64,000 nt of DNA from an uncultured Gemmatimonadales bacterium (GTDB lineage: Bacteria; Gemmatimonadota; Gemmatimonadetes; Gemmatimonadales; GWC2-71-9). Shown here piece by piece: positions 48,339 through 62,489 of the stretch (the stretch's first letter is position 1; each line of letters opens with the position of its first letter). The stretch is from the NCBI GenBank assembly GCA_963806875.1, contig CAWDYU010000001.1, positions 783,508 to 847,507 on the forward strand, read 5' to 3'. The position numbers and the translations under genes were made by a program. Below the pieces are notes generated by a model. It was not told the DNA's origin, searched no databases, and saw only the letters and a list, made by a program, of their open reading frames with translations.

Positions 48339-48866
48339 ATGATCAAGGCCAGAAGTGGCTCCTCGTCCGAGTACCTCTTCGAGGACCTTGAGGGAAAGCC
48401 TCTCGGCTCATTGAAGATGCCGACCTACGTCGCCGTGCCGCGCGACGGATGGGCAAAGGGCGTCATTCCAGAGTCGCTACAGGACGGGCCGAGTATCCGG
48501 CTCCTGGACCGAACGTTCATCATCGACCATCAACTGCTCAGCGACCGCGCCATCAAGCCGAACGACCTGAGGTTCTTCCTGATGGAGGGTGACCGCGAGG
48601 TGGCGGTCACCGACGCCCTCGTCGAGAGAGCGCGAAGATGGGATTTCGATCTCGACGGCCGGCGATTCACATTGGCGAAGGTCGGCGGGATCTTCTCGTC
48701 ATTGCGTTACGACCTGACTCTGGATGCGCACAAGGTCGGGGAGATTGTCGAGGCGGCCCGGTTCACGCTTCGGTCCCGCTCATTCGTCATCGATTGTCCC
48801 GAGGAGATCGATCGGCCAATTCAGCTGTTCATGTTCTTTCTCGCCGCAAACGCGACATACCGGTAG
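48339..48866 (+). CDS. Hypothetical protein, possibly tubby/scramblase-like (LURP-one-related) beta-barrel fold
   Basis: Lower-GC ORF with atypical codons (aga, tca, ttg, aca). The alternating beta-hairpin-like pattern ...RRFTLAKVGGIFSSLRYDLTLDAHKVGEIVEAARFTLRSRSFVIDCPEEIDRPIQLFMFFLA gives only a weak impression of the fold. An alternative GTG start exists at 48294. Confidence 0.45.
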   Translation: MIKARSGSSSEYLFEDLEGKPLGSLKMPTYVAVPRDGWAKGVIPESLQDGPSIRLLDRTFIIDHQLLSDRAIKPNDLRFFLMEGDREVAVTDALVERARRWDFDLDGRRFTLAKVGGIFSSLRYDLTLDAHKVGEIVEAARFTLRSRSFVIDCPEEIDRPIQLFMFFLAANATYR

Positions 48867-48924
48867 CCGCCAGGGCCGGCGATCGCCTGCTCGAGGCGTC
48901 GCGGCCCATGAGCGCCGCCCGCCC

Positions 48925-50025
48925 TCACGTGAAGTGAAGGTTCCGCTGGAAGTCGTCGGGGCTCGTGGCGGCCGCCATGGCCACGTCGAGGGTGATGAGG
49001 CCTTCGCGATGGAGCGTCATCAGGTTCTGGTCGAAACTCTGGGTGCCATACATCGGCCCGCCATCTTCGATCAGCTTCACGATCTCGGCGGTCTTGTCGG
49101 GATCCGCGATGCACTCCTCGATCGCCGACGTATGCCGCATGACCTCCACAGCGAGCACCTGGCCCTTGCCATCGGCACGAGGCAGGAGTCGCTGCGACAC
49201 CATCGCGCGCAGCACCTCGGCGAGTCGCTTCCGGACCCCAAGCTGCTCGCTCGGCTCGAACACGCTGGCGAACCGGGTCACGCCGCGGATCGAGTCCGTG
49301 GTGTGCACCGTCGCCATGATGAGGTGTCCGGTCTCGGCCGCCTGAAGCGCCACGTCCACCGTGACCCGGTCGCGCATCTCCCCGATCAGCACCACGTCGG
49401 GATCCTGCCGGAGGGCCGCACGCAGCGCCGGCTCGAAGCCGTGGGTGTCGCTGCCGACTTCGCGCTGGATCACGATCGAGTTGACGTCGCGGTGCAGGAA
49501 CTCGATCGGATCCTCGATCGTGACGATCTTCTTGCGCTTGTGACGGTTGATGTGATCGACCATCGCCGCCATGGTCGACGACTTTCCGCTGCCGGTGGTG
49601 CCGGTGACCAGAATCAGGCCGCGATCTTCCATGGCGATATCGGTGAGCACCGGCGGAAGGCCGAGCTGATCGAAGGTGGGTATGATCTCGGCAATGCCAC
49701 GGAGTACCGCCGAGAACGAGCCGCGCTGGAGGCAGATGTTGGCGCGAAAGCGGCCGAGGCCGGCAACGGAATATGAGCAGTCCATCTCCGTGAGCTCGGT
49801 CAACCTGTCGACGACGTTCTCCCGCGTCGCCTTCCTGGCGCTGACCAGTATCTCCGCGGCGATCTCGGCGAGATCGGCTGCAGTCAGGGTCGGCGAGCCC
49901 TCGATCGGTACGACCTCGCCGTCGATCCGGAGCCGGAGCGGCCCACCTGCACTGACGTGCAGGTCCGAGGCCCTGCGATCGTGAGCCGCCTTCAGGCCTG
50001 TCCTGAATACGTCGAGAATCGGCAT
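48925..50025 (-). CDS. pilT: Type IV pilus retraction ATPase PilT/PilU family
   Basis: 366 aa. Walker A GTTGSGKSST, Asp box/Walker B (IVLIGEMRD) and His box (GHLIMATVHT). The N-terminus is typical of PilT. Confidence 0.85.
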   Translation of the reverse strand: MPILDVFRTGLKAAHDRRASDLHVSAGGPLRLRIDGEVVPIEGSPTLTAADLAEIAAEILVSARKATRENVVDRLTELTEMDCSYSVAGLGRFRANICLQRGSFSAVLRGIAEIIPTFDQLGLPPVLTDIAMEDRGLILVTGTTGSGKSSTMAAMVDHINRHKRKKIVTIEDPIEFLHRDVNSIVIQREVGSDTHGFEPALRAALRQDPDVVLIGEMRDRVTVDVALQAAETGHLIMATVHTTDSIRGVTRFASVFEPSEQLGVRKRLAEVLRAMVSQRLLPRADGKGQVLAVEVMRHTSAIEECIADPDKTAEIVKLIEDGGPMYGTQSFDQNLMTLHREGLITLDVAMAAATSPDDFQRNLHFT

Positions 50026-50135
50026 TGCACGCTCCCGATGAGTGGAACTGCCGGCACCGCCGCGTGCGGCACGCGGAGCGCGGCGGACGTGATCCTGCTA
50101 TCCCGGTTGGATCGGAAAGTTATGGGGGTCGGGAC

Positions 50136-50163
50136 ACAATACCACGCCGTGTCATCCGATCAA
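50136..50163 (-). promoter_or_regulatory. Candidate sigma70-type promoter upstream of pilT
   Basis: On the minus strand: TTGATC, a 16-nt spacer, then TATTGT, about 110 nt upstream of the pilT ATG in a 230-nt intergenic gap. Pattern match only. Confidence 0.2.
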
Positions 50164-50255
50164 AGGGACGTGGCGGAGGAGGTGCAGCGTTGTCACCGAC
50201 GTGCCGTTGCCGGCATCGACGACACATCCCAAAGCGGCCAGGGATGGCCGCGGCG

Positions 50256-51263
50256 TCAGCGAGGGCGATTGATCCCCAGGGCGACCAAGACGTCATCAAT
50301 GGCCACCGCTGCGTACCGGCCCTGTGGAACGGCTCGCACCGCCCTTGCGCGCACAACTCCGATCACCTCGGCGCGATCATTGAGCAACGGGCCGCCGCGG
50401 TCGAGCGCCCCGACGGTCACGGTGGTCTGCACGACCCGAATTACTTCCGATGTACTCACGGACGCGACGACTCCCCGCGAGAGGGTTTGCGGATGGCTGA
50501 GCGCCGATCCGATACCGAACACCCTCTGTCCGGGGACAACCGTGGTGATCGACCCCATTCGCAATGGCACCAGCGAATCCAGCGAGACCTTGAGCAACAC
50601 CACGCCCACCATGGTATCCGACGCCTGCACCACCGCGCCGCTTCGCCGACCATCGGCGGTCTTGACGATGATCGCGGTCGATCCGCGCACGACATCGTAA
50701 TTCGTGAGGATCAGCCCGCTCGCCAGCACGACGAATCCACTGCCTTGCGCGTTGTCAGTCTCGATCTGCACGACCGATGGCGCGGCGATCGCGGTGACGG
50801 CTCGCACGCTCAGCGGAGTCGCTGACCTCGGTTGCAGGTCGCGGGGAAGAACCAGCGGGGGCGATGGGTCCGGCTTGAGGTAACGAATTGCAATGCCGGT
50901 GGCAGACGCGGCCGGGATGGTCATGGAACCGGTCAATGACGCGCCCTTGAACTCCGATGTCTCCCGGATGATGACGGCGTCGGCGCCCAGCGCGCGGGCC
51001 TGCGCCTGCAGCATCGGCACCAGGTCGGCGAGCTGCACGGTGTTGAACGCCGTGGCAGCGCGCTTCTGTGCCGAGACCATGCCGACTTCTTCAAAGGGAT
51101 GGTCGACCTTCTGTTCGGCGAGGTAGATGTCGATCGGGGCCGCGTCGGGCCTTGCGGCGAGCGTCTTGCTCCCGGTGCGAACACTCTGTTGAGTCGTCGC
51201 CGCACAACCGCACAGCCCAAGGACCAGGATCAGTATGGCGCCCCTCTGATGCAATGCACGCAT
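50256..51263 (-). CDS. Lipoprotein with a trypsin-like (S1C/HtrA-type) fold lacking all three catalytic residues (pseudoprotease)
   Basis: LVLGLCGC lipobox. The C-terminal half aligns to HtrA-type proteases, but TNxHVV is TNYDVV (H->D), D[IL]A[VL][IL] is GVVLL (D->G), and GNSGGPL is LDRGGPL (S->R). Confidence 0.7.
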   Translation of the reverse strand: MRALHQRGAILILVLGLCGCAATTQQSVRTGSKTLAARPDAAPIDIYLAEQKVDHPFEEVGMVSAQKRAATAFNTVQLADLVPMLQAQARALGADAVIIRETSEFKGASLTGSMTIPAASATGIAIRYLKPDPSPPLVLPRDLQPRSATPLSVRAVTAIAAPSVVQIETDNAQGSGFVVLASGLILTNYDVVRGSTAIIVKTADGRRSGAVVQASDTMVGVVLLKVSLDSLVPLRMGSITTVVPGQRVFGIGSALSHPQTLSRGVVASVSTSEVIRVVQTTVTVGALDRGGPLLNDRAEVIGVVRARAVRAVPQGRYAAVAIDDVLVALGINRPR

Positions 51264-51321
51264 GACGCCCCCATTGATTGCCGCCTGACGCAGACTGAGT
51301 CTGCGCGAATCTCCCTCGTGA

Positions 51322-53028
51322 CTACCCCTGCACGGTTGCTCGCGTCACCCGCCAGCTTCCGTTTGCGCCCTGGCTCAGCTGCAACGTGAACCGCGCAGTC
51401 TTGCGCTTCGATGACCCGAATGCCGAGCGCACCTCGACCTCACTCGAGACCGTGGCGGTGGCCTCCGAGCCGTTGACGTTCACCGACGGTGTGCCCGGCG
51501 CCCCCAGCACCAGACGCTTCTCGCGCAGCATTCGGTCGGCTGGCTGGCCATCGACCGAACCGGTGAGACCGGCGCCGTCGCCTCGGCGGAACCAGTCTCG
51601 TACTGCTGTCGCGACTTCGCGCTCCGAGTCCGCGGCGGAGTTGCGCGATGTGCCACCGTCCGACCCGCCGACCGGAGAAGGCGTGTCGGGCTTCTTCTCG
51701 GGCGCTGGCGCTGGCGTGGGCGGTGGTGCAGGTGCCGGTGCCGGTGCCGGTGTCTGCCGGCTGGGCGGAGTTTTCCGCACCGGGTCCGGCTGCCGGATGA
51801 CCTCCGGCGGTGGCGCAACCCCACTGCCTCCCACGGGCGCAGCCGGCCGCGACTGTGCGCCCGGCCCGAGCACCGGAGGTGGAATGGGGCGCGCCGACAC
51901 GGTCGGCCCGATCTCTGTCGATGGCGGCCCTTCGCTCGGAACTGCCGGCGTGTCGGTACCGCCGCTGCGCAGCACCACGCCAACGGCGAGTGCCAGCATC
52001 GCGACCGTCGACCACGTGCGCCAGTCGGTCCAGAGCCCGCCACTTGTACCACCACTCGACGACCCGGCCGCGGTCGTGTATACCGGCGCCGTTGTCGCGA
52101 CCGGAGCCGTCGCTGCGCTTCCGTCGTGCGGCGTCGCATGACGCGGCGTCGAGGCGATCCGGGTCGCGGGGGCAGGCCCGCGCGCCGCGTGTGTCTCGGT
52201 GACGACGCTCGCGGCCGCTTCCATCAGTGCATTCCGCATCGCCGCCGCCGTGGCGTATCGGTCTCCCGGCAGCTTCGACATCGCCCGGAGCACCGTGCGG
52301 TCGACCACCGCCGGCAACTCCGGGTTGCTCTCGCTCGGCGCCATCGGCGGCTCGTTCAGCTGCCGCATCATCAGCTTGTAGTCGCTGTCGGCCTCGAACG
52401 CGACCTTGCCGGTCACCAGTTCGTAGAACACGGCGCCGAGCGCGTAGAGATCGGTACGACCGTCGCACTCCTCGCCGCGCAATTGCTCCGGTGCCATGTA
52501 GGCTGGCGTGCCGACCGAGTGTCCGTGCCGGGTTTGCCTGCTGCTTCCTGCCATCCTGGCGATGCCGAAGTCCATCACCTTGGTCGCATCGCCCGGCCCG
52601 ATCATGATGTTCGCCGGCTTGATGTCGCGATGCACCACGCCATGATCGTGGGCATGGTCCAGCGCCTCGGCGACCTGTGCGCAGATCCCCGCTGCACGCC
52701 GCCAGCTCACCCGTCCGGTTCGGGCAACGAGATCCTCCAGCGTCTCTCCACGGAGGAACTCCATCACCATGTAGAACTCATCGCCGTCCCGCTCGAGCCC
52801 GTAGAGCGTTGCGATCCGCGGATGCGCCAGGCGCGCCAGCGCAATCGCCTCGGTGCGGAACCGTTCGACCAGTGCGGTCTGCCGGACGAGATCGGGGCGG
52901 AGGACCTTGATGGCGACGTCGCGGTCGAGCATCTCATCGCGGGCGCGATAGACCGTGCCCATCCCGCCCTCACCCAACCGGTCGACAATCTGGTACTTGC
53001 CGAGGGTGGTGCCACGGCGGTCGCTCAC
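51322..53028 (-). CDS. Ser/Thr protein kinase with a TM helix, Pro-rich periplasmic linker and a small C-terminal domain
   Basis: GEGGMGTVY, VAIKVL, HRDIKPANIM, DFGIA and APE motifs. TM helix WSTVAMLALAVGVVL and a PAPAPAPAPPPTPAPAP linker. The start overlaps the upstream stop (ATGA). Confidence 0.85.
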   Translation of the reverse strand: MSDRRGTTLGKYQIVDRLGEGGMGTVYRARDEMLDRDVAIKVLRPDLVRQTALVERFRTEAIALARLAHPRIATLYGLERDGDEFYMVMEFLRGETLEDLVARTGRVSWRRAAGICAQVAEALDHAHDHGVVHRDIKPANIMIGPGDATKVMDFGIARMAGSSRQTRHGHSVGTPAYMAPEQLRGEECDGRTDLYALGAVFYELVTGKVAFEADSDYKLMMRQLNEPPMAPSESNPELPAVVDRTVLRAMSKLPGDRYATAAAMRNALMEAAASVVTETHAARGPAPATRIASTPRHATPHDGSAATAPVATTAPVYTTAAGSSSGGTSGGLWTDWRTWSTVAMLALAVGVVLRSGGTDTPAVPSEGPPSTEIGPTVSARPIPPPVLGPGAQSRPAAPVGGSGVAPPPEVIRQPDPVRKTPPSRQTPAPAPAPAPPPTPAPAPEKKPDTPSPVGGSDGGTSRNSAADSEREVATAVRDWFRRGDGAGLTGSVDGQPADRMLREKRLVLGAPGTPSVNVNGSEATATVSSEVEVRSAFGSSKRKTARFTLQLSQGANGSWRVTRATVQG

Positions 53029-55206
53029 GACATCACCGGCGAGGCCTGGGTGATACTGACCGCTTCGGGGCCCGACATCGGCACCCCGAGGATCACCACG
53101 CTCACGTTGTCGGGGGCGCCGGCCTCGCGGGTTACCCTGACCAGTTCGTTGCAGGCGAGGTGTGGGGGCATCGAGTCGACCACCCGAAGGATCTCGGCCT
53201 CGGGGATGACATCATGCAACCCGTCGGACGAGAGCAGGAGTCGGTCGCCGGGGCGGATCACGAACGGTCGCGCCCAGGTCGCGACGTCGACGTCGGGGTG
53301 ACTGCCGAGTGCACGGGAAATCACGTTCTTGTCGGGATGCTCGCGCGCCTCATCGCGGGAGATGCTGCCCTCCCTCACCAGTTCCATGACGGCGCTGTGG
53401 TCCTCTGTCATCACGAAGATCTCGTTGGCGCGGATGAGGTAGCAGCGTGAGTCGCCGACATGGGCGCACCACGCGAGTCCGCCGCGCAACACGATGGCAG
53501 TGCACGTTGTGCCCATGCCGCGGAGCGCGGTGTTGCCGGCGGCAGTGTCGTAGATCTCGCGGTTGGCGCGCCGCACCGCACGTGCGAGGATCTCACCAGG
53601 GTCGCCGGTCTCCTGATATCGCTCGGCGACGGCGTCGGCGGCAATCCGGCTCGCCTGCTCGCCGCCGGCATGGCCGCCCATGCCATCGCACACCATGGCG
53701 AGCAACGCACCGTTTTCGTCGGGCGGCCGCACCACGCGCACGGTGTCCTCGTTGTTGGTGCGCTGGCAGCCCGGATCACTCGCCGTTCCTATCACCACCC
53801 GTGATTCGACACCGAGGGCATCGCCGTGAAATGCCGGACGATCGACGGTCTCCTGCGCGCGTCGCGCGGCTGATGCCTTGCGCCCCCATGGAACCCCGAA
53901 CCATGCAAAGCCGAGGAGCAGGGGCAGCAGCGGTCCGCCGTTCGAGTGCGGCCGACCACCGCTCGGCCGCAGCACGAACGAGTATTCGGAGCGTCCCTCG
54001 GTCACGTTGAAGCGCACGTCCTCGTCACGGTAACCGCTGCGCCGCAGGATCAGGTGTACTTCTGCGCCCAACGCCATCTGCAGGCGATAGGGTGTCTCTC
54101 CCACCTGCTGTCCGTCCTGCCAGACGGTGGCGGTGCCATTGATCGTGTTCACGGTGACGTTGCGCACCCGCCCAGGGGGTGTGAGGGTGGCGGGTGGTGC
54201 GGAGTCACGAACGATGCTGACAGCCATGGAATCGGCCGGGCCAGCGGGATTGCGAGACCAGAGGCCACTGAACGCGAACACGAGTGCCATTGCCGCAACG
54301 CTGCCTGCCGCCAGCAGCGGCGCGTGGCGGCTTGCCCTGGCGGCGAGTTCCGGCATGCTGACCGGTCCTGGGGCACGCTCGCCAGTGCGGATTCGCTCGA
54401 GGTCGCTGCGCAGCGTATCGAACGATCCATACCGGGCCCGCGGGTCGACCTTGAGGCATCTGCTCGACCACGGCGTCGACGAAACGCGGCAAGCCTGGGT
54501 TCGATACTGTCGGTGCCGGATAGCGGGCGGTACGGATCCGCTGGGTGATGTCCTCCACCCCTGCGGCTGCAAACGGGTGCCGCGCCGTGAGCATCTCGTA
54601 GAAGAGGACACCGAGCGCCCAGATCTCGCTCTGCATGTCGGCTGGCGCGCCCATGAGTTGTTCGGGAGCCATCGATTGCAGCGTCCCGATGACGCTTCCA
54701 TCGGCGGTGAGGGCGGGAGAATCGGGTCCCTTGGCAATCCCGAAGTCGAGCAGTTTCACTTCGCCCGACCGGGTGATCTTCACATTGCTCGACTTGATGT
54801 CCCGGTGCACCGTGCCCCGCTTGTGTAGGTAGTCGATGGCTTCCACCAGGCCCTGCATGCTGTCAACCGCTCGTGCCAGCGGCATCGGACCATGGGAGGC
54901 GAGCCACGATTCGATGGTCTTGCCATCGACGAACTCCAGCACGATCGCCGGTGTCCCGTCATGCGAAGCAAAGGCGATCATCCTGGCGATTCCGGGGTGC
55001 GCGAGAGACGAATGGATTCGCGCCTCGTTGGCGAAGCGTGCGCGAAGCGATTCCGATCCGCGCACCGCCGTGAGGATCTTCACGGCAACTTCCTGCCCCG
55101 ACTGCCGATCCACGCCGCGATAGACCTCCCCCATGCCACCGGCGCCGATGAACTCGACGAGATGCCAACTCCCGAACTGGACGTGCAGCCAGGTGCCGGT
55201 GGTCAT
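53025..55206 (-). pseudogene. Apparent single-polypeptide fusion: Ser/Thr kinase - TM - PEGA-like domain - TM - PP2C phosphatase, one frame change
   Basis: The kinase motifs (GAGGMGEVY, VAVKIL, HRDIKSSNV, DFGIAK, APE) end at ...FVDAVVEQM. An extra C near 54456 shifts the frame to LKVDPRARYGSFDTLRSDL. The sequence then runs without a stop through TM1 (LLAAGSVAAMALVFAFSGLW), a PEGA-like domain (VNTINGTATVWQDGQQVGETPY...GYRDEDVRFNV), TM2 (LLPLLLGFAWFGVPW) and a PP2C domain (NEDT, MVCDGMGGHAGGEQAS, SSDGLHD, DNVSVV). Confidence 0.7.
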
Positions 55207-55220
55207 GAGTCTTCCTCTGG

Positions 55221-56969
55221 TCAGTTCGAGTTGGGTGCGACCGACATCAACTCCATCCCGTAGCGAATCGGGAGGGAGAACGAGATCTGCACGTCGCCAG
55301 TCTTGCCGGCGAAGAAGATGCCGATCACCCGTCCGAATGCATCGAACATCGGACCGCCGCTATTGCCGCCGCCGGTCGAGTTGATGGTCAGCTGATAGGT
55401 GTCACCGCTGGAGTACTCCTGCATCGACTGGGTGGTCGGGCCGTCGGCAGCGCGCAGGATCTTGCCGATGTTGCCGACTGACACGGTCGGGTCGGGGACG
55501 ACTCGCTGCTGCGCATCACGGTTGAAGAGATCCCGTGAACGGAGGACCGCGACGACATAGTCGGATACCGACGGATACCCCATGACGGTGACCTGATCTC
55601 CGACCTTGGTTTCGTCGTATGAGTCGTACAGCTCGACCTTGGGGAGCGTGGAGGGCGCCGAGACCTTGATGAGCGCCACGTCGTGCTGGTCGCTGACTCG
55701 CTGGGTCGCAGCCTCGAGCGGAGTGGTGTTCTTGCGGAAGCGAACCATCACGTATTCCTGCCGGCCGCGGAAAACATCGAACTCGTTCTTCGGCCCGGTC
55801 TGCTTCGTCTCCGACGGGATCCAGCGGGTTGGCGGGCGCGTGAGGATGGGCTGTCCCTGCTGGTCGAACGCGACCTGCCCTCCCTGCATGACCACCCCCA
55901 CCGCGTTCGGGTCGAAGCCGTAGGGCGCGCGCCAGTTGGCGGCAACGTGGCGGTTGGTGAGGATGAAGCCGTCATTGGTCACCACAAACCCCGAACCACT
56001 TCCCGTCACGGCGATCGGCGCTCCGCTTGCAGCGTCGAGGGTGAGGGCCGGTTCGATGGCGCCGTCATCCAGCCGGACGTAGGCCGGCACCATGTCGCCG
56101 GCACCCTGCATCAGCGTGATCACACGCTTCTGGCCGTTGACCTGGACTTGCAGCTGGTTTGGCACGTAGCGGTGGAAGACCTGGGCACCGGTCGGGGCGT
56201 AGATGAGGTTCCAGGAGAAGTCCACCTGTACCACTGCGCCGGAGTTTTTCTCGGCGACCTCGGCCGGAGTCTGCATCGTGCCCAGCGCCTGCGCCCGCTC
56301 TCCTGCCTTGCCGATCGAGTCGGTACGCGCCGCGAGCAGCGCTGCCTGTCGCTTCGCTTCTTCGCCGCTGCTGTCGGCGTTCGACTTGAGGTACGCTCCG
56401 CCGGCCACGGCGAGTAGCACGACGGCGGCCACGGCCATCATCGTGGTGCGCTTTCCCTCATTGCGGGTCTCGCCGATCATCCGCTCCACCGTGGCCTTGC
56501 CGACGCTGCCGGCGGGCCGCGCTGCAGGCACGGTCTCGCCCACCGCGACACCGGCGGTGCGCGTCTCACCCGCAGTGCTCGCTGCTGCGGGCGCTGCGAG
56601 CCCGCCCAGGCGGGTGGCCTTCACGTATGCGGCGGGAAGTGGGTCGATCTCGAATCCGATCTCGGGTCCACCAGCGCCGAGCTGGATGATGTCGCCCGGT
56701 GCGAGTGGCACACTGCCGGAGATCCGGACCTTGTTGAGGAAGGTGCCGTTGCGGCTGTTGAGGTCGGTGAGGGAGAAACGGATGGGATCCTTCGGGTCCC
56801 GCACGATTCGGGCGTGCTGGCGACCGACGAGATCGTCCTTGTCGGCGTCGAACCGGACCTGGGCGATCGGGTCGCGCCCGAGGGTGAGTTCCGAGACGTC
56901 AGCGAGAGGGAATTCCTCGACCGACCCGGCTTTCGATCCCTTCATATGACGCAGGATCACACGTTCCAT
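55221..56969 (-). CDS. FHA domain - TM - trypsin-like serine protease (S1C) fusion protein
   Basis: N-terminal FHA domain (LTLGRD...VGRQHARI...LTDLNSRNGTFLN), TM helix (MMAVAAVVLLAVAGGAYL), and a periplasmic protease domain with an intact triad (TNRHVA, HDVALIKV, GGNSGGPMF). Confidence 0.85.
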   Translation of the reverse strand: MERVILRHMKGSKAGSVEEFPLADVSELTLGRDPIAQVRFDADKDDLVGRQHARIVRDPKDPIRFSLTDLNSRNGTFLNKVRISGSVPLAPGDIIQLGAGGPEIGFEIDPLPAAYVKATRLGGLAAPAAASTAGETRTAGVAVGETVPAARPAGSVGKATVERMIGETRNEGKRTTMMAVAAVVLLAVAGGAYLKSNADSSGEEAKRQAALLAARTDSIGKAGERAQALGTMQTPAEVAEKNSGAVVQVDFSWNLIYAPTGAQVFHRYVPNQLQVQVNGQKRVITLMQGAGDMVPAYVRLDDGAIEPALTLDAASGAPIAVTGSGSGFVVTNDGFILTNRHVAANWRAPYGFDPNAVGVVMQGGQVAFDQQGQPILTRPPTRWIPSETKQTGPKNEFDVFRGRQEYVMVRFRKNTTPLEAATQRVSDQHDVALIKVSAPSTLPKVELYDSYDETKVGDQVTVMGYPSVSDYVVAVLRSRDLFNRDAQQRVVPDPTVSVGNIGKILRAADGPTTQSMQEYSSGDTYQLTINSTGGGNSGGPMFDAFGRVIGIFFAGKTGDVQISFSLPIRYGMELMSVAPNSN

Positions 56970-57055
56970 GATGACGAGCCTCCAGTGGATGGGATTTGCC
57001 GGAAATCGGCGCTTCCTCCCACACGCGTCAGGGGCTCCTCAAACGGCTCATCAGC

Positions 57056-59332
57056 TCACGGTTTCGCCCCGCTGGTCTCCGGCGCATCGCGCCACCTGGC
57101 CTCGTCGGCCGGCCGACCCCACGCGCGGTACAGGGCGGCGAGCCGTTGCCGCGCCTCACGCGCCGGCTGGCTCGTGGCGCCGCGCACCTCGGCCAGTCGC
57201 CGCTCGGCGGGGAGGAGCAGGCGCTCCGCTTCGGGGTAGCTGCCTCGCTTGATCAGCGTCGCAGCGAGAACGCTACGACTCGATGACAACAACCAATGCT
57301 CCGCCGGAAACACCGCCTCGCGCAGTGCCAGGCTCTCGCGTAGCCAACGCTCGGCCACCTCGAGCGAATCGAGCTCGGCGAGCGCTCGCCCGAGGACCTG
57401 CATGCCGGTGGAGACCGCCGGGTGACTGTCGTCGAGTGTGCGGCCACGCAGTGCCAGCACCCGTCGCGCCCACACTGCCGCGTCGGCCGGGCGCCCCGAG
57501 CTGAGGAGCAGGTCGGCATAGCTGAACATCGTCCAGGCGTAATCCGGATGCTCCGCTCCGAGCAGGATCTTCCGCACCCGGAGCACTTCGCGGTAAGCCG
57601 AATCGGCGGCCTCCGGCCGGCCCATGCGTTCGAGGATGGTAGCGTAGGCGTTGAGGGTCGAGGCGTGCAGCGGGTGAATGTCGTCGAACGCCTCGGCTTC
57701 GAGTGCCAGCGCAGCGCGAAAATGGGCATCAGCCGAATCGGTCTCACCGGCCTCGCCAAAAACCGCTGCGAGGTTGTGGTGCGCGTACGCGAGCGCCGAA
57801 TCGTTGTCGGGCTCGAGTCGCCGCTGCATGGCGAGCGCCTCCACGAGAAAGGGCACCGCACCTTTTGCGTCGCCGAGCCGGCTCCGGAGTCGGCCGCGGT
57901 GGTCGAGGAATGCCACACCAGTGGGCGTCTCGGCGTCGGCGCCGGCGCCGAGCAGGTCGATCGCCACGGCAAGCACGGAGTCGGCGCGTTCGAGTTCGCC
58001 GTCGAGTTCGAGCGCCGTGCTGAGGTTGGCCAGCGCCGCTGCCAGGCGTTCATGATCCGGCGGGTCGAGGCGTCGCGCCGCGTCCACCGCTCGATGGGAC
58101 TGGTCGATCGCGAGCGCGAACTCGCCGAGTGTCAGGTAGGTGTTGGAGAGGACGTGACGAACCCGCACTTCGAGGTCGGGTTGATCTTTCAGGGAATCGG
58201 CGCGCAGTGCCGCGGTGTCGAGCACCTCACGCATCGTGATGTCGCGGCCGAGCTGACCCGGGTCCGGCGCCGCAAGCATCGATGTGAAGAACGCAGTCAC
58301 CGCCGTTGCCTGCTCGCGCTCGTGCACGGCACGAGTGGCCTGACGACGCGTGGCGACGACGCCCCAGCTGAGCGAACCGAGCACGAGAACGCGCGGCAAC
58401 GAGTTCAAGCCGACGCCGACGAATGAACTTCGTCAGGCGATAGCCGGCTCTATCGGGACGGGCAGCAACCGGAAGTCCATCGAGATGCCGCTCGATATCG
58501 TCGGCGAAGCGCGCCACGGTACCGTAGCGACGGTCGGGATCTTTCCGGAGTGCCATCAGCATGATGGCGTCGAGATCGCCGCGCAGCCGCCGTGCACCTG
58601 CGACAGTGCTGGGACGGGGGGAGCTTCGTGGCAGACGATCGCCTCGATCTCCGTCCGCATCCTGCCATGGAGGTCGAACGGGCGACGTCCGGTCAACAGC
58701 TCGTAGAGGATCACGCCGAGCGCATAGACATCGGTCGCAGGGCTGGCGGGGAGCCCGCGCAGCTGCTCCGGCGCGGCATACTCGGGTGTCAGCCCCGGTT
58801 GATCGCCTTGCGTGAGCGGCAGCTGGCCGCTTCCCTCGTCCTCCCGAAGGAGCCGGGCGATCCCGAAGTCGAGCAGCTTGACCGTACCAGCCTCGGTCAC
58901 GAGGATGTTGCCAGGCTTGAGGTCGCGGTGCACGACCAGCTGCTGGTGGGCATGCTGTACCGCAGCGGTGACCTGGAGAAAGAGTACCAGCCGTTGGCGA
59001 AGCGTCAGCTTGCGCGCGTCGGCCCAGGTGGTGAGTGGCGCTCCGTCGACATACTCCATGGCGAAGTACGGCTGGCCGTCGACCGTGATCCCGCCGTCGA
59101 TCAGCGCGGCAATGTTGGGATGGTCGAGGGCGGCGAGAATCGTTCGCTCGTAACGGAACCGCCTGACTGCGAGATCACCCTCGGCGCTCGCCCGCATGAG
59201 CTTGATCGCCACGCGATGCTCGAACTCGGTGTCTGCGCGTGCAGCCTCGTACACCGACCCCATCCCACCGGTACCGATCTGTCGCACCAACTGATATGGG
59301 CCGATCCGCATGTTGAGGGCGGGATCGTTCAT
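57056..59332 (-). pseudogene. Ser/Thr protein kinase - TM - TPR repeat protein (downstream paralog), 2 frame changes
   Basis: MNDPALNMRIGPYQLVRQIGTGGMGSVYEA..HRDLKPGNILV..DFGIA. Shifts lie near 58590 and 58400. The rest is collinear with the intact paralog at 59332-61803 (RRLRGDLDAIMLMALRKDPDRRY..., AVTAFFTSMLAAPDPGQLGRDITMREVLD..., TPR repeats). The ATG overlaps the upstream stop (TGATG). Confidence 0.75.
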
Positions 59333-61803
59333 CAGGGCACCTTTGCCGGCAGGAGTGCCGCCCAGCGGGCGGCCTGGGCTGGTTTCTGCCACGCGGTATA
59401 GAGGCGCACCAGTCGCGTGTGGGCATCGGTCATCGGCTGCGAGCTCGGTTCCCGGTCGGCAGCCAGCGCGGTCTCGCTCCGCAGCAGCAGTCGCTCGGCC
59501 TCGACGTATCGACCGACACCGGTATAGAAATCACCGAGGATTCCTTCGCTGCTGGCGATGAGCCAGTGGTGCGCCGGCAAGGAGGCGCGACGGAGCGCGA
59601 GACTTTCCTTCAGGTACCGCTCAGCCGCAACAGTCGAGTCGAGATGACTGAGCGAGATGCCCAGTGCCTGCATTGCGGTGGCGATCGCCGGATGCGCGTC
59701 GGGCAAGGTCCTGCCACGGAGGGCCAGCACCTCGCGCGCGCGACCGGCCGCGCGGCTGTACTGCTTCATTCGAGCCAGGAACTGTGCCGACTGGAAGAGC
59801 GCCCAGGCGTAGTCGGGATGCTCGGCTCCGAGGAGGCGTCGCTGCATTGCGAGCGCCGCCTCAGAGACGGAATCAGCCCGGTCGAGGTGCCCGTTGAGTT
59901 CGAGCGAGTACGCGTACTGTGCCATGGCGTTGGCGACCAGCGGATGCTCGGCGCCGTGCGCCCGGCGTGCGGCCGCGACCGATTGGGCGTGCAACGTTTC
60001 GCCCTCGGCGAAGCGGCCCAGTTGGGTGATGACTTGCCCGAGATTGTTGTACGAGAAGAGCAGCAGGGAGTCGTTGTCGGGGGCTACGCGCGCCCGGAAC
60101 TCGAGCGCCTCGCGGTAGAGTTGTGCCGACGCCGGGAGGTCGCCCGCTGCGTCGCGCAGTCGTGCCCGCGAATCGAGGATGCTCGCGCGGGAGAGATCAT
60201 CGGGGGCTGCGTGCCGCTGCACCATCGGATCCGCGATCCGCATCACGGAGTCTGCCTCGGGATAGGCTCCCGTGAACTCGTAGATCCCGCTCACCTTCGA
60301 GAGCAGCGTGCCGGTGGCCAGGTCGCCGTTGGGCGACAGCATGCGCCGCAGTACCACCGCCCGGCTGTACTGCGCCGCGGCGGCTTCGTACTCGCCGAGA
60401 CCGCGATAGGTGTCACCGATCACCTCGCGTATCTCGGCGGCAAGGTCCGGTCGCTCGTCGAGTGAGTCCGCCCGGATTGCGGCGGTGTCGAGCACCTCGC
60501 GCATCGTCACCGAGCGACCGAGCCTGGCCGGGTCGGGGGCGGCAAGCATGGTGGTGAAGAATTCGGTGACAGCCGTGGAGCGATCACGCTGGAGTTCGGC
60601 GGCGCGCGCCTGCCGTGTGCTGAAGACCATCCCACCGACCGACGAACACAGCAGCAGCACCGCGGCGATCGACTCGACGGGGTGGCGTCGAAGGAGCCTG
60701 CGGGTCCGATATCCCCATCCCTCGGGGCGGGCGTGGACCGGGCGCCTGTCGAGCAGCGCCTCGACATCCTGGGCCATCTCATCGACCGATCCGTAGCGAC
60801 GTTCTGCCTCCTTGCGGAGCGCGACAAGAATGATCGCATCGAGGTCGCCGGAGATCCGGCGTCGAAGGGCGGGCGCCGACCGTGCTGCCAGCTTGCGCCA
60901 GCGATCGGGACCGAGCGCTTCGCTGGGCCTGGGCGGCGGTGTGGTACAGACGATCTGCTCGATCTCGGCGATAAGCTTGCCCTGCAAACCAAACGGGCGT
61001 CGGCCGGCGACCAGTTCGAAGAGGAGAACACCGAGCGCGTAGACGTCGGAGGCCACACCGACAGGAAGTCCGCGCACCTGTTCCGGGGAGGCATACTCGG
61101 GCGTGAAGATCCGGGCACCGCCCTGCGTCGCCGGAAGTTGATCGGTCCCCTCTGATACCCGCAGCAGTTTCGCGATTCCGAAGTCGAGGAGCTTCACCGT
61201 GCCCTCGTCGGTCACCAGGATGTTTGCCGGCTTGAGGTCACGGTGGACGACGAGTTGCTGGTGGGCGTGCTGCACCGCCCGGCAGACCTGCAGGAAGACG
61301 AGGAGCCGTCCACGAAGCGGCAGCGTCCTTTCGTCACACCATTCGGTGATCGGGCGACCCTGCACGTACTCCATCACGAAGTAGGGCTGGCCGTCGTCGG
61401 TCACGCCGCCATCGATGAGTGCTCCGATGTGGGGATGACTCAGGTTGGCCAGGATCTGCCGTTCGTAGCGGAATCGCCGAATGGCGAGATCACTCTCGAC
61501 GCCCCGCTGCAGGAACTTGATCGCCACGCGCCGGTCGAATCCCGGGTCGGCGCGGATGCCTTCGTACACGATGCCCATCCCGCCGACACCGATCTGCCGG
61601 ATGACACGGTACGATCCGACCTCCGTCCCCGACCGGTCACTCCGGTCGGCCAGCGTGAACCCCGGTTCCCGGGAGATACGGGTCTGCAGCGTGGCGCCGG
61701 TCTGCCGGTGCGCAGTGAGCAGGGCGCGCACCTCGTGACGCAGCGCCGCGTCGTCGGGGGAAGCGGCCTCCAGGAACGCGTCGAGGTCGGGCGGGTTGCT
61801 CAT
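59332..61803 (-). CDS. Ser/Thr protein kinase - TM - TPR repeat protein with an N-terminal extension (ECF-sigma-associated type)
   Basis: Start taken at MSNPPDLDAFLEAASPDDAALRHEVRALL. Kinase motifs (GVGGMGIVYEG, VAIKFL, HRDLKPANILV, DFGIAK), TM helix (IAAVLLLCSSVGGMVF) and a long TPR region. Confidence 0.85.
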   Translation of the reverse strand: MSNPPDLDAFLEAASPDDAALRHEVRALLTAHRQTGATLQTRISREPGFTLADRSDRSGTEVGSYRVIRQIGVGGMGIVYEGIRADPGFDRRVAIKFLQRGVESDLAIRRFRYERQILANLSHPHIGALIDGGVTDDGQPYFVMEYVQGRPITEWCDERTLPLRGRLLVFLQVCRAVQHAHQQLVVHRDLKPANILVTDEGTVKLLDFGIAKLLRVSEGTDQLPATQGGARIFTPEYASPEQVRGLPVGVASDVYALGVLLFELVAGRRPFGLQGKLIAEIEQIVCTTPPPRPSEALGPDRWRKLAARSAPALRRRISGDLDAIILVALRKEAERRYGSVDEMAQDVEALLDRRPVHARPEGWGYRTRRLLRRHPVESIAAVLLLCSSVGGMVFSTRQARAAELQRDRSTAVTEFFTTMLAAPDPARLGRSVTMREVLDTAAIRADSLDERPDLAAEIREVIGDTYRGLGEYEAAAAQYSRAVVLRRMLSPNGDLATGTLLSKVSGIYEFTGAYPEADSVMRIADPMVQRHAAPDDLSRASILDSRARLRDAAGDLPASAQLYREALEFRARVAPDNDSLLLFSYNNLGQVITQLGRFAEGETLHAQSVAAARRAHGAEHPLVANAMAQYAYSLELNGHLDRADSVSEAALAMQRRLLGAEHPDYAWALFQSAQFLARMKQYSRAAGRAREVLALRGRTLPDAHPAIATAMQALGISLSHLDSTVAAERYLKESLALRRASLPAHHWLIASSEGILGDFYTGVGRYVEAERLLLRSETALAADREPSSQPMTDAHTRLVRLYTAWQKPAQAARWAALLPAKVP

Positions 61804-61909
61804 CGAGCGCCTGTTCGAACAGCCCCTTGATGCGCGCCAGGCGAGTCGGCGTCCAGTCTGGAGTCTGGACCATGTCAGGACACGCGGCGTTGTTGGCTGA
61901 AGTCGCTCA

Positions 61910-62489
61910 TCAGTGCGCGGGCGAGGCGCCGCCCATGGCGTGCAGCAGGAAGGCCCGGGCGAAGGTCCAGTCACGCTTCACGGTGGCGGGGGAGATCTCC
62001 AGCGCCTCGGCGGTCTCGTCGATCGAGAGCCCGCCGAAGAAGCGGAGCTCCACCACTCGGCCCTGGCGCGGATCCAGCGCCTCGAGGCGCTCGAGGGCGT
62101 CGTTGAGGGCGAGCACATCGAGTTCGCGGTCGCAGGCATCTCCGATGGACTCGTCGAGGGTGACCCGGATCCCATGGTCGCGCTTGATGGTCCGGCGCTT
62201 GCGCGCCTGGTCGATCAGGATCCGGCGGATCGCCTGGGAGGCGATGCCATAGAACTGCGACCGGTTCTGCCAGTTGGCGTTCCGCTGGCCGACCGTCCGC
62301 ATGAACGCCTCATGGACCAGTTCGGTCGGCTGCAGGGTGTGGCCGGCCGATTCCCGCTGCATCGCGAAGGTGGCCAGCTTGTGAAGCTCGGCGTAGACCA
62401 GTGGCGCGAGCTGCATCTGCGGCGGCCGCGTTGCCGGCGCTCAGGTCTGCGAGCAGCCGGGTGACCTCGTGTTCGGGCGCGTCGGGCAT
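61910..62489 (-). pseudogene. ECF-type RNA polymerase sigma factor (TIGR02999 / kinase-associated ECF43-like), one frame change
   Basis: MPDAPEHEVTRLLADLSAGNAAAADA in one frame, then LAPLVYAELHKLATFAMQRESAGHTLQPTELVHEAFMR...RVVELRFFGGLSIDETAEALEISPATVKRDW in another (shift near 62420). No anti-sigma gene is adjacent; the next gene is a Ser/Thr kinase. Confidence 0.75.

Follow-up and report, generated by a model that had tools for sequence, protein, structure and literature searches.

A membrane-spanning FHA-protease predicted within a conserved Ser/Thr kinase–phosphatase cassette of Gemmatimonadota and other phyla

A 64,000-nucleotide stretch of DNA from an uncultured Gemmatimonadales bacterium (assembly GCA_963806875.1, contig CAWDYU010000001.1; hereafter the window, meaning the whole stretch that was analysed) encodes, at 55221..56969 on the minus strand, a 582-residue protein in which an N-terminal FHA domain and an HtrA-like protease domain are separated by a predicted transmembrane (TM) helix. 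This FHA-protease is the first gene of a conserved cassette that continues with a Ser/Thr kinase (K1), a PP2C phosphatase and a second kinase (K2). On balance, and with modest confidence, we favour the reading that the protein is the reader and effector of a Ser/Thr phospho-signalling module that comprises four genes and is largely anchored in the membrane, and in which K2 would write the phospho-mark, the FHA domain would dock on it and PP2C would erase it. A first-pass annotation of the same sequence had proposed that cytoplasmic phospho-recognition is coupled to periplasmic proteolysis, and the predicted topology, the linkage to the cassette (55/59 loci), a threonine–arginine (T-R) motif shared with K2 and the HtrA fold all support such a coupling as far as sequence can.

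A widespread family encoded at the head of a four-gene cassette

The open reading frame (ORF; ATG start, 582 aa plus a stop codon) represents a real gene because public data hold a protein 100% identical to its translation, together with more than 120 listed full-length homologues at 54-87% identity, whose source names include Gemmatimonadales, Gemmatimonadaceae, Gemmatimonas and Gemmatimonadota/-etes; its Pfam matches agree. The product therefore stands as first annotated, but its strand has been corrected to minus. Public annotations of the homologues read 'trypsin-like peptidase domain-containing protein' or 'S1-C subfamily serine protease'. An exhaustive HMMER scan over 1.84 billion cluster representatives recovered 412 clusters (50% identity) at E<=1e-30, most of which align over residues 1-580, and a pattern scan of 185,579 species-representative genomes, one per GTDB species, turned up 414 stretches in which a relative is encoded. 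Among the best 80 of these 414 loci, from which taxa were read, the carriers belong to the Gemmatimonadota, Acidobacteriota (Blastocatellia, Pyrinomonadaceae, Chloracidobacterium, Bryobacterales, Vicinamibacterales, Terriglobia and Thermoanaerobaculia), Abditibacteriota, Armatimonadota and Rhodothermales/Bacteroidota. The window protein aligns with the family representatives over residues 1-582 and is collinear with them along its full length (FHA domain, T-R linker, one TM segment and a protease carrying the W346/W383-x-P385 insert), and both the protein and its locus belong to the family and its cassette. The combination of FHA and protease domains that had been singled out at first is borne out by this survey, but it is widespread and generically named, and so less singular than had been implied.

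In called genes from Gemmatimonas aurantiaca T-27 and three other Gemmatimonadota lineages, the FHA-protease gene is followed by genes for a Pkinase, a PP2C and a second Pkinase; some lineages encode the first of these kinases and the PP2C as a single fusion protein of 730 aa. The T-27 orthologue of the FHA-protease lies at 4506246-4508039 of AP009153.1. Scoring by tblastn covered 86 loci, 59 of which had at least 5 kb of downstream sequence; in 55 of those 59, spanning several phyla, a kinase–PP2C–kinase series, or a kinase–PP2C fusion followed by a kinase, lies directly downstream on the same strand, and in nearly all loci the series begins within ~300 nt of the protease stop codon. All-against-all clustering of the ORFs of 87 loci gave no fifth gene conserved across phyla. 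The Gly-loop, HRD and DFG motifs of K1 and K2 are kept family-wide; by NCBIfam, the catalytic domains of both kinases are PknB/Stk1-like and the PP2C is Stp1-like (217 bits versus a cut-off of 230).

In the window, K1 and PP2C are of the fused type (53025..55206, minus), starting at 55206, 14 nt downstream of the protease gene, and the fusion comprises a kinase, a TM segment, a PEGA-like periplasmic domain, a second hydrophobic segment and PP2C (Pfam: Pkinase, a weak PEGA and PP2C). K2 (51322..53028, minus; identified by Pfam), whose start abuts the stop of the fusion, has its TM segment at about residue 340, followed by a periplasmic tail that varies. Where PP2C is unfused it has no N-terminal hydrophobic segment, and the phosphatase is therefore not always membrane-anchored. 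The PEGA-like ectodomain of K1 (~106 aa) is conserved in all loci, with 1590/1770 pairs detectable by BLAST, and is the only periplasmic element besides the protease domain to be conserved across loci. The K2 tail was also considered as a conserved substrate and rejected, its sequence being unconserved (69/1225 pairs detectable by BLAST).

The cytoplasmic linker of the FHA-protease (residues 111-175; 56445..56639, minus), which AlphaFold2 (AF2) confidence scores mark as disordered, carries two T-R sites, KATRLG around T119 (56610-56615, minus) and GETRTA around T136 (56559-56564, minus). Within a linker that is otherwise unalignable, T119 is retained by 136 and T136 by 141 of 144 family representatives, and the local consensus is [K/R/P][A/P]-T-R-[V/L/I/E]-[A/G/S]. 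The juxtamembrane linker of K2 contains 0-6 copies of the same motif, there [K/P][E/A/P]-T-R-[L/I/V]-[G/A], as in '...KETRLGEAAP...KATRLGEP...KATRLGTM...'. When counts of TR[LIVM][GAS] were compared with composition-preserving shuffles, 100 occurrences were observed in the K2 linkers (55 sequences; shuffles 2.0±1.4) and 92 in the protease linkers (145 sequences; shuffles 3.0±1.7). The motif is at background in all other regions tested, namely K1 linkers (4 observed, 2.2 in shuffles), K2 kinase domains (7 and 3.5), K1 kinase domains (5 and 3.3), FHA domains (3 and 3.2) and the periplasmic parts (10 and 11.1). The resulting enrichment in the protease and K2 linkers is ~30-50-fold, a figure that overstates the independence of the sequences, since shuffles ignore shared ancestry; the variable copy number of the motif and its survival in unalignable linkers nevertheless argue against pure inheritance. 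The activation loop of K2, SR[M/Q]-T-[R/Q]-xG, itself carries T-R in 48/62 K2 orthologues (RQTRHG in the window, 52528-52533), suggesting that K2 prefers T-R sites, whereas the corresponding K1 loop, LT[Q/S]TG, has T-R in 5/63.

Topology, phosphothreonine pocket and protease domain

The sole hydrophobic segment of the window protein spans residues 176-194 (TMMAVAAVVLLAVAGGAYL; 56388..56444, minus) and has a Kyte-Doolittle 19-aa mean of 2.11, the only peak above 1.6; the hydropathy profile contains neither a second hydrophobic segment nor an N-terminal signal peptide. Across 141 family representatives, exactly one hydrophobic segment is present in 138, its position is kept family-wide, and no N-terminal signal-like segment was found. 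The residues flanking the segment include a mean of 3.76 Lys and Arg on the N-terminal side and 2.30 on the C-terminal side, with the N-terminal count higher in 111 representatives and lower in 8. Because of the single segment, this positive-inside bias and the lack of a signal peptide, the protein is predicted, with good support, to be bitopic with its N-terminus inside and its C-terminus outside, placing the FHA domain in the cytoplasm and the protease in the periplasm. The earlier claim that one TM helix separates the two domains is upheld at the level of prediction.

An AF2 monomer model built on 60 orthologues (mean predicted local distance difference test score (pLDDT) 75.7) is confident over residues 1-110 (FHA domain) and 240-580 (protease domain), gives residues 117-176 as disordered (pLDDT <50 for 117-159), and places one long helix at 158-196 that covers the juxtamembrane and TM regions. 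Beyond the membrane, a periplasmic helical stalk (residues 195-245; 56235..56387, minus), which is poorly conserved in sequence, is modelled as helices 202-230 and 235-245. A third cytoplasmic element, VG[K/R]xTVER[M/L][I/L], occupies residues 158-169 (56463-56498, minus; VGKATVERMI in the window), with T160 kept in 143/147 representatives. It sits at the N-terminal end of the long juxtamembrane/TM helix and might cap that helix, be phosphorylated or provide an interaction surface close to the membrane.

The FHA domain (residues 1-110; 56640..56969, minus) was recognised by Pfam (residues 29-98; E 3e-16, 60.1 bits versus a cut-off of 20.7), by alignment with the FHA domains of GarA, Rv0020c and Vps64, and by its AF2 beta-sandwich, in which pLDDT is mostly 83-91 and falls to 51-57 at residues 31-50. 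The best NCBIfam FHA match, FhaB/FipA (NF049868), reaches 43.9 bits against a cut-off of 125, below the level of an equivalog. The pocket is formed by G31-R32, G49-R50-Q51-H52 and S72-R73-N74-G75-T76. In 60 close orthologues G31, R32, R50, H52, N74 and G75 are essentially invariant, and among 151 family representatives G31, R32, R50, H52, S72 and N74 are each kept in at least 141 (G31 in 147, R32 in 146). The SxxH block departs from this pattern. Its His52 is present but its Ser is replaced by Gly49 ('VGRQHA' versus 'VSRRHA' in GarA), and Gly49 is invariant in the 60 close orthologues. The first-pass annotation was thus right about the domain, but the motif string it gave (GR...QHARI...SRNGTF) hid the substitution. 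Among the 151 representatives, Ser occupies this position in 93 (Abditibacteriota, Rhodothermales/Bacteroidota, Bryobacterales and Thermoanaerobaculia) and Gly in 52 (Gemmatimonadota, Blastocatellia and Vicinamibacterales), so that the dimorphism tracks taxonomy, while the sequence context DDLV[S/G]RxHA, the operon and the T-R motif are the same in both types. The Ser of SxxH contacts the phosphate and is among the five most conserved FHA residues (PMC4238996). Phosphothreonine (pThr) binding is therefore not to be assumed in the lineages in which this canonical residue is Gly, and the natural variant would offer material for studying the plasticity of the pThr pocket.

The periplasmic domain (residues 246-582; 55224..56234, minus) was assigned to the HtrA-like chymotrypsin fold by Pfam (Trypsin_2, residues 325-551; E 8.7e-18, 65.9 bits versus a cut-off of 27.6), phmmer against the PDB and Foldseek. 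In the phmmer alignment, TNRHV matches TNAHV of HtrA1, HDVALIKV matches ADIALIKI and GNSGGP matches GNSGGP, which identifies the triad as His341 (55947-55949), Asp430 (55680-55682) and Ser537 (55359-55361), all on the minus strand. The three residues follow the order of S1C proteases and are kept in 145/151 (His), 147/151 (Asp) and 145/151 (Ser) family representatives. Every one of the top 50 Foldseek matches in the PDB is a protease domain of the HtrA family (HtrA1, HtrA3, AlgW, DegP, DegS, MucD and plant Deg1), with target-normalised template modelling scores of 0.66-0.76 for HtrA1 and DegS protease domains (~0.7-0.76 for the HtrA1 domain on its own) and 0.41-0.53 for full-length AlgW, DegP and MucD chains. 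An S1C-type periplasmic protease with an intact triad and no PDZ domain, as described in the first pass, accordingly agrees with both alignment and fold. Pfam found no PDZ match anywhere in the 582-aa protein, and the 45 residues that follow Ser537, which is also the family median, leave no room for one; no family member has the space for a C-terminal PDZ. Curated HtrA models score far below their cut-offs (TIGR02037, 60.5 versus 416.2; HhoA/HhoB/HtrA, 50.2 versus 450; DegS, 27.8 versus 422.95), and NCBIfam holds no model specific to the FHA-TM-protease family.

Two large inserts flank the catalytic His. Insert 1 (~60 aa, residues 258-319; 56013..56198, minus), defined by AF2 and family spacing, occupies the LA-loop position of HtrA enzymes, ahead of the GSGF strand, is beta-rich, with several strands between 265 and 318 (pLDDT ~88-96), and is mirrored in a family median of 64 residues from W253 to G327. 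Insert 2 (approximately residues 346-404; 55758..55934, minus) directly follows the catalytic His, as judged from the HtrA1 alignment, family spacing and AF2, and is a hallmark of the family, with W346, W383 and P385 conserved at >=97% and pLDDT ~90. By established numbering, His and Asp are 29 residues apart in DegP, DegS and HtrA1. In the window protein the gap is 88 residues (family median 94), so the insert between His and Asp is indeed atypical for HtrA enzymes; its reported size of about 90 aa, however, was that of the whole distance, and the HMMER alignment of residues 345->413 with positions 64->73 of the HtrA1 chain puts the insert proper at ~59 aa. A further ~28 extra residues lie between Asp and Ser. 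The two large inserts probably stand in for the missing PDZ domain as a gate for substrates.

A possible phospho-dependent circuit and its alternatives

HtrA enzymes work as trimers or higher oligomers, and FHA domains are known to mediate self-association through pThr-containing linkers in Rv1747, TIFA and Chk2. For the module described here, K2, possibly primed by the sensor-like K1, would phosphorylate the T-R sites, and the FHA domain would bind pT-R-[L/I/V] on K2, leading to recruitment, and/or on neighbouring protease molecules, leading to self-clustering. Because a single TM helix transmits mainly via proximity or oligomeric state, docking or clustering is the proposed signal: it would assemble or position the periplasmic protease domain and so set its location and oligomeric state, until PP2C removes the phospho-marks and resets the system. 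The K1 ectodomain and envelope proteins are candidate substrates. Precedent for partners encoded together comes from mycobacteria, where kinases and their FHA partners share a locus in the pairs PknB-Rv0019c, PknF-Rv1747 and PknH-EmbR (PMC4238996). A fully inside-out version of the scheme, in which T-R phosphorylation drives FHA docking or clustering, the periplasmic protease is thereby activated and a specific target (the K1 ectodomain or an envelope protein) is cleaved, is a tentative proposal that we regard as possible but doubtful.

Several observations weigh against the phospho-signalling module as set out above. Gly49 is found in all Gemmatimonadota and Blastocatellia members and may weaken or alter pThr binding; K2 of the window carries a single juxtamembrane T-R copy (PAPATRIAS, T289, 52159-52164); the shared ancestry behind the motif counts has been noted; a frameshift in K1-PP2C of this genome may mean that the module is impaired here, or may be an assembly indel; and the results fit inside-out and outside-in information flow alike. 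The first of these points opens the way to a phospho-independent reading, in which the FHA domain of the Gly49 lineage is a constitutive interaction module, like the FHA-like domains of YscD/PrgH in type III secretion systems, and the T-R motif is a non-phosphorylated docking peptide or serves another purpose. The Ser-to-Gly change is indeed invariant in the 60 orthologues and there is a weak Pfam match to Yop-YscD_cpl (23.9 bits, under the cut-off of 33.2), but G31, R32, R50, H52 and N74 stay invariant, Ser- and Gly-type members share the DDLV[S/G]RxHA context and the cassette, and what stays invariant in the motif is a Thr, in proteins encoded beside two kinases with intact motifs and a PP2C. 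We consider this reading improbable.

Information could also flow the other way, with the protease mainly regulating the kinases by sensing or clipping the PEGA-like ectodomain of K1 or the tail of K2, and the FHA domain only tethering it to autophosphorylated K2; an active kinase would then attract the very protease that sheds it, or the protease would permit the kinases to be activated. That the K1 ectodomain is the only other conserved periplasmic element, that no separate substrate gene is conserved nearby and that the T-R docking motif is located on K2 all fit such a scheme, as does the example of DegS, a membrane-anchored HtrA protease that cuts the bitopic signalling partner RseA. It leaves the two near-invariant T-R sites of the protease itself unexplained, however, and the periplasmic tail of K2 is unconserved; although we rate it as unlikely, it overlaps with the favoured explanation instead of contradicting it. 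A housekeeping role, as an envelope quality-control chaperone/protease that the FHA domain merely localises (e.g. where the cell grows or divides, a localisation suggested for FhaB/FipA), seems quite improbable. The closest folds are those of the quality-control enzymes DegP, DegQ, HtrA1 and MucD, the best NCBIfam FHA match is FhaB/FipA, and PknB/Stk1- and Stp1-like catalytic domains belong to families tied to the control of envelope growth. Against this stand the absence of PDZ from every family member, the big conserved inserts by the catalytic His, which suggest restricted access and not broad specificity, the low HtrA-family NCBIfam scores (60.5 versus 416 for the best), and the strict four-gene linkage and shared motif, which indicate a dedicated circuit.

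The module is built from familiar parts. Its protease shares the chymotrypsin fold and His-Asp-Ser triad of the DegS/HtrA S1C enzymes (DegP, AlgW, MucD and HtrA1), its best structural matches, and DegS, the site-1 protease of the Escherichia coli sigma-E pathway, likewise combines one N-terminal TM anchor with a periplasmic protease that serves signalling and not bulk degradation. Unlike DegS and other HtrA enzymes, the window protein has no PDZ, a longer His-Asp spacing and an extra ~60-aa insert at the LA position, and its cytoplasmic portion is a 175-residue FHA domain and linker where DegS has essentially none. MarP (Rv3671c) of Mycobacterium tuberculosis, which was among both the PDB and the NCBIfam matches, is also a membrane-anchored periplasmic chymotrypsin-like protease that lacks PDZ, but it has four TM helices and no FHA domain; the window protein scores 39.2 bits against the MarP model (NF033740; cut-off 250) and has one hydrophobic segment in place of four TM helices.

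In its gene content, the cassette recalls the mycobacterial fhaA-fhaB(fipA)-pstP-rodA-pbpA-pknA-pknB locus, which likewise brings two Hanks kinases and one PP2C together with FHA protein(s). The two differ, however, in which genes they contain and in what order: the present cassette has neither rodA nor pbpA, its kinases lack PASTA domains, and its carriers belong to other phyla. The FHA-linked effector here is a periplasmic protease, where the mycobacterial counterparts are an ABC exporter or a small adaptor: FhaB/FipA is a small membrane-anchored FHA adaptor, whereas in the present family the FHA domain is N-terminal and accompanied by a protease domain. In the membrane protein Rv1747, cytoplasmic FHA domains read pThr in the protein's own disordered linker and so control an outward-directed activity. 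The PpkA/PppA/Fha1 pathway of type VI secretion systems, which switches an envelope-spanning machine post-translationally, similarly combines a Hanks kinase and a PP2C with an FHA reader; the cassette differs from it in having two kinases, an FHA domain fused to the effector enzyme and no type VI secretion genes.

The architecture has already been recorded, although it is uncharacterised: a 2008 survey of prokaryotic serine proteases lists an FHA-FHA-Trypsin protein, NP_811686.1, from Bacteroides thetaiotaomicron (PMC2605481). That protein, compared here by its listed architecture alone, has two FHA domains and is a single catalogue entry given without analysis of topology, operon, motif or function. 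Our full-text literature searches retrieved no functional study of an FHA-protease beyond this entry, the papers they returned did not mention the conserved cassette or the T-R motif, and they yielded no description of bacterial Ser/Thr phosphorylation being linked directly and reversibly to extracytoplasmic proteolysis.

Taken as a circuit, the cassette is compact: it has two writers and one eraser, its reader is fused to an enzyme across the membrane, and it comes with a defined candidate docking motif. If the proposal is correct, cytoplasmic Ser/Thr phosphorylation would gate periplasmic proteolysis, a signalling route to set beside regulated intramembrane proteolysis and two-component systems, and several phyla that have been little studied would share this direct and reversible link. 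The Gemmatimonadota and Acidobacteriota are very rich in Hanks-type kinases, and to our knowledge almost none of the outputs of these kinases are known. As the module is found in cultured strains (Gemmatimonas aurantiaca T-27 and Abditibacteriota bacterium IAD-21), it is experimentally approachable.

The surrounding locus

At least four Hanks-type kinases are encoded in the window. The FHA-protease gene lies, as first noted, directly between kinase genes, with K1 downstream and, immediately upstream, a disrupted gene for a Ser/Thr protein kinase with TPR repeats (STPK-TPR; 57056-59392, minus). This upstream gene has an in-frame TGA at 58556-58558, and the expected C-terminus of its kinase (DAIMLMALRKDPDRRYGTVARFADDIERHLDGLPVAARPDRAGYRLTKFIRRRR) is in another frame at ~58400-58570; this stop and change of frame imply two indels. 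The K1-PP2C gene is also split, by a 1-nt insertion near 54467-54472 that leaves two overlapping frames ('GTCGAGCAGATGCCTC' in the window versus 'ATCG-GTCGTTGCCTC' in the relatives L003, L007 and L008), and a tblastn search with the intact 730-aa orthologue from L003 matches both frames. The K1-PP2C split is either an assembly error or a pseudogene, and the two disruptions together suggest assembly indel errors or local gene decay.

Further upstream lie a gene for an extracytoplasmic function (ECF) sigma factor (~61919-62413, minus) and then an 880-aa STPK-TPR gene (59332-61974, minus). Several Gemmatimonadota loci (L003-L006) likewise have an ECF-sigma/STPK-TPR pair ahead of the cassette, and a comparable upstream kinase was not seen in most loci outside this phylum; being Gemmatimonadota-specific, both genes are excluded from the core module. 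A promoter and terminator scan of 48500-57400 gave nothing above shuffle expectation, and the operon boundaries are therefore drawn from gene spacing and synteny only. A reading of the locus as anti-phage defence was rejected as unsupported, PADLOC having returned only generic kinase (PD-T4-6) and protease-domain similarity.

A few kb downstream of the cassette is a gene for a 366-aa secretion or pilus ATPase of the T2SSE family (PilT/PilB-like; 48925-50025, minus), which was rejected as a cassette member because it is not conserved with the cassette. The gene that begins 58 nt downstream of K2 (50256-51263, minus) was likewise set aside, being missing at the L003 locus and unconserved over the 87 loci. 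It encodes a 335-aa, lipoprotein-type HtrA-like protein with a signal sequence (LVLGLCGC) and a Trypsin_2 domain in which, relative to MucD, the catalytic His is replaced by Asp (LTNYDV), Asp by Gly (VGVVLLKV) and Ser by Arg (LDRGGP), and which, judged by these motifs, is a dead pseudoprotease.

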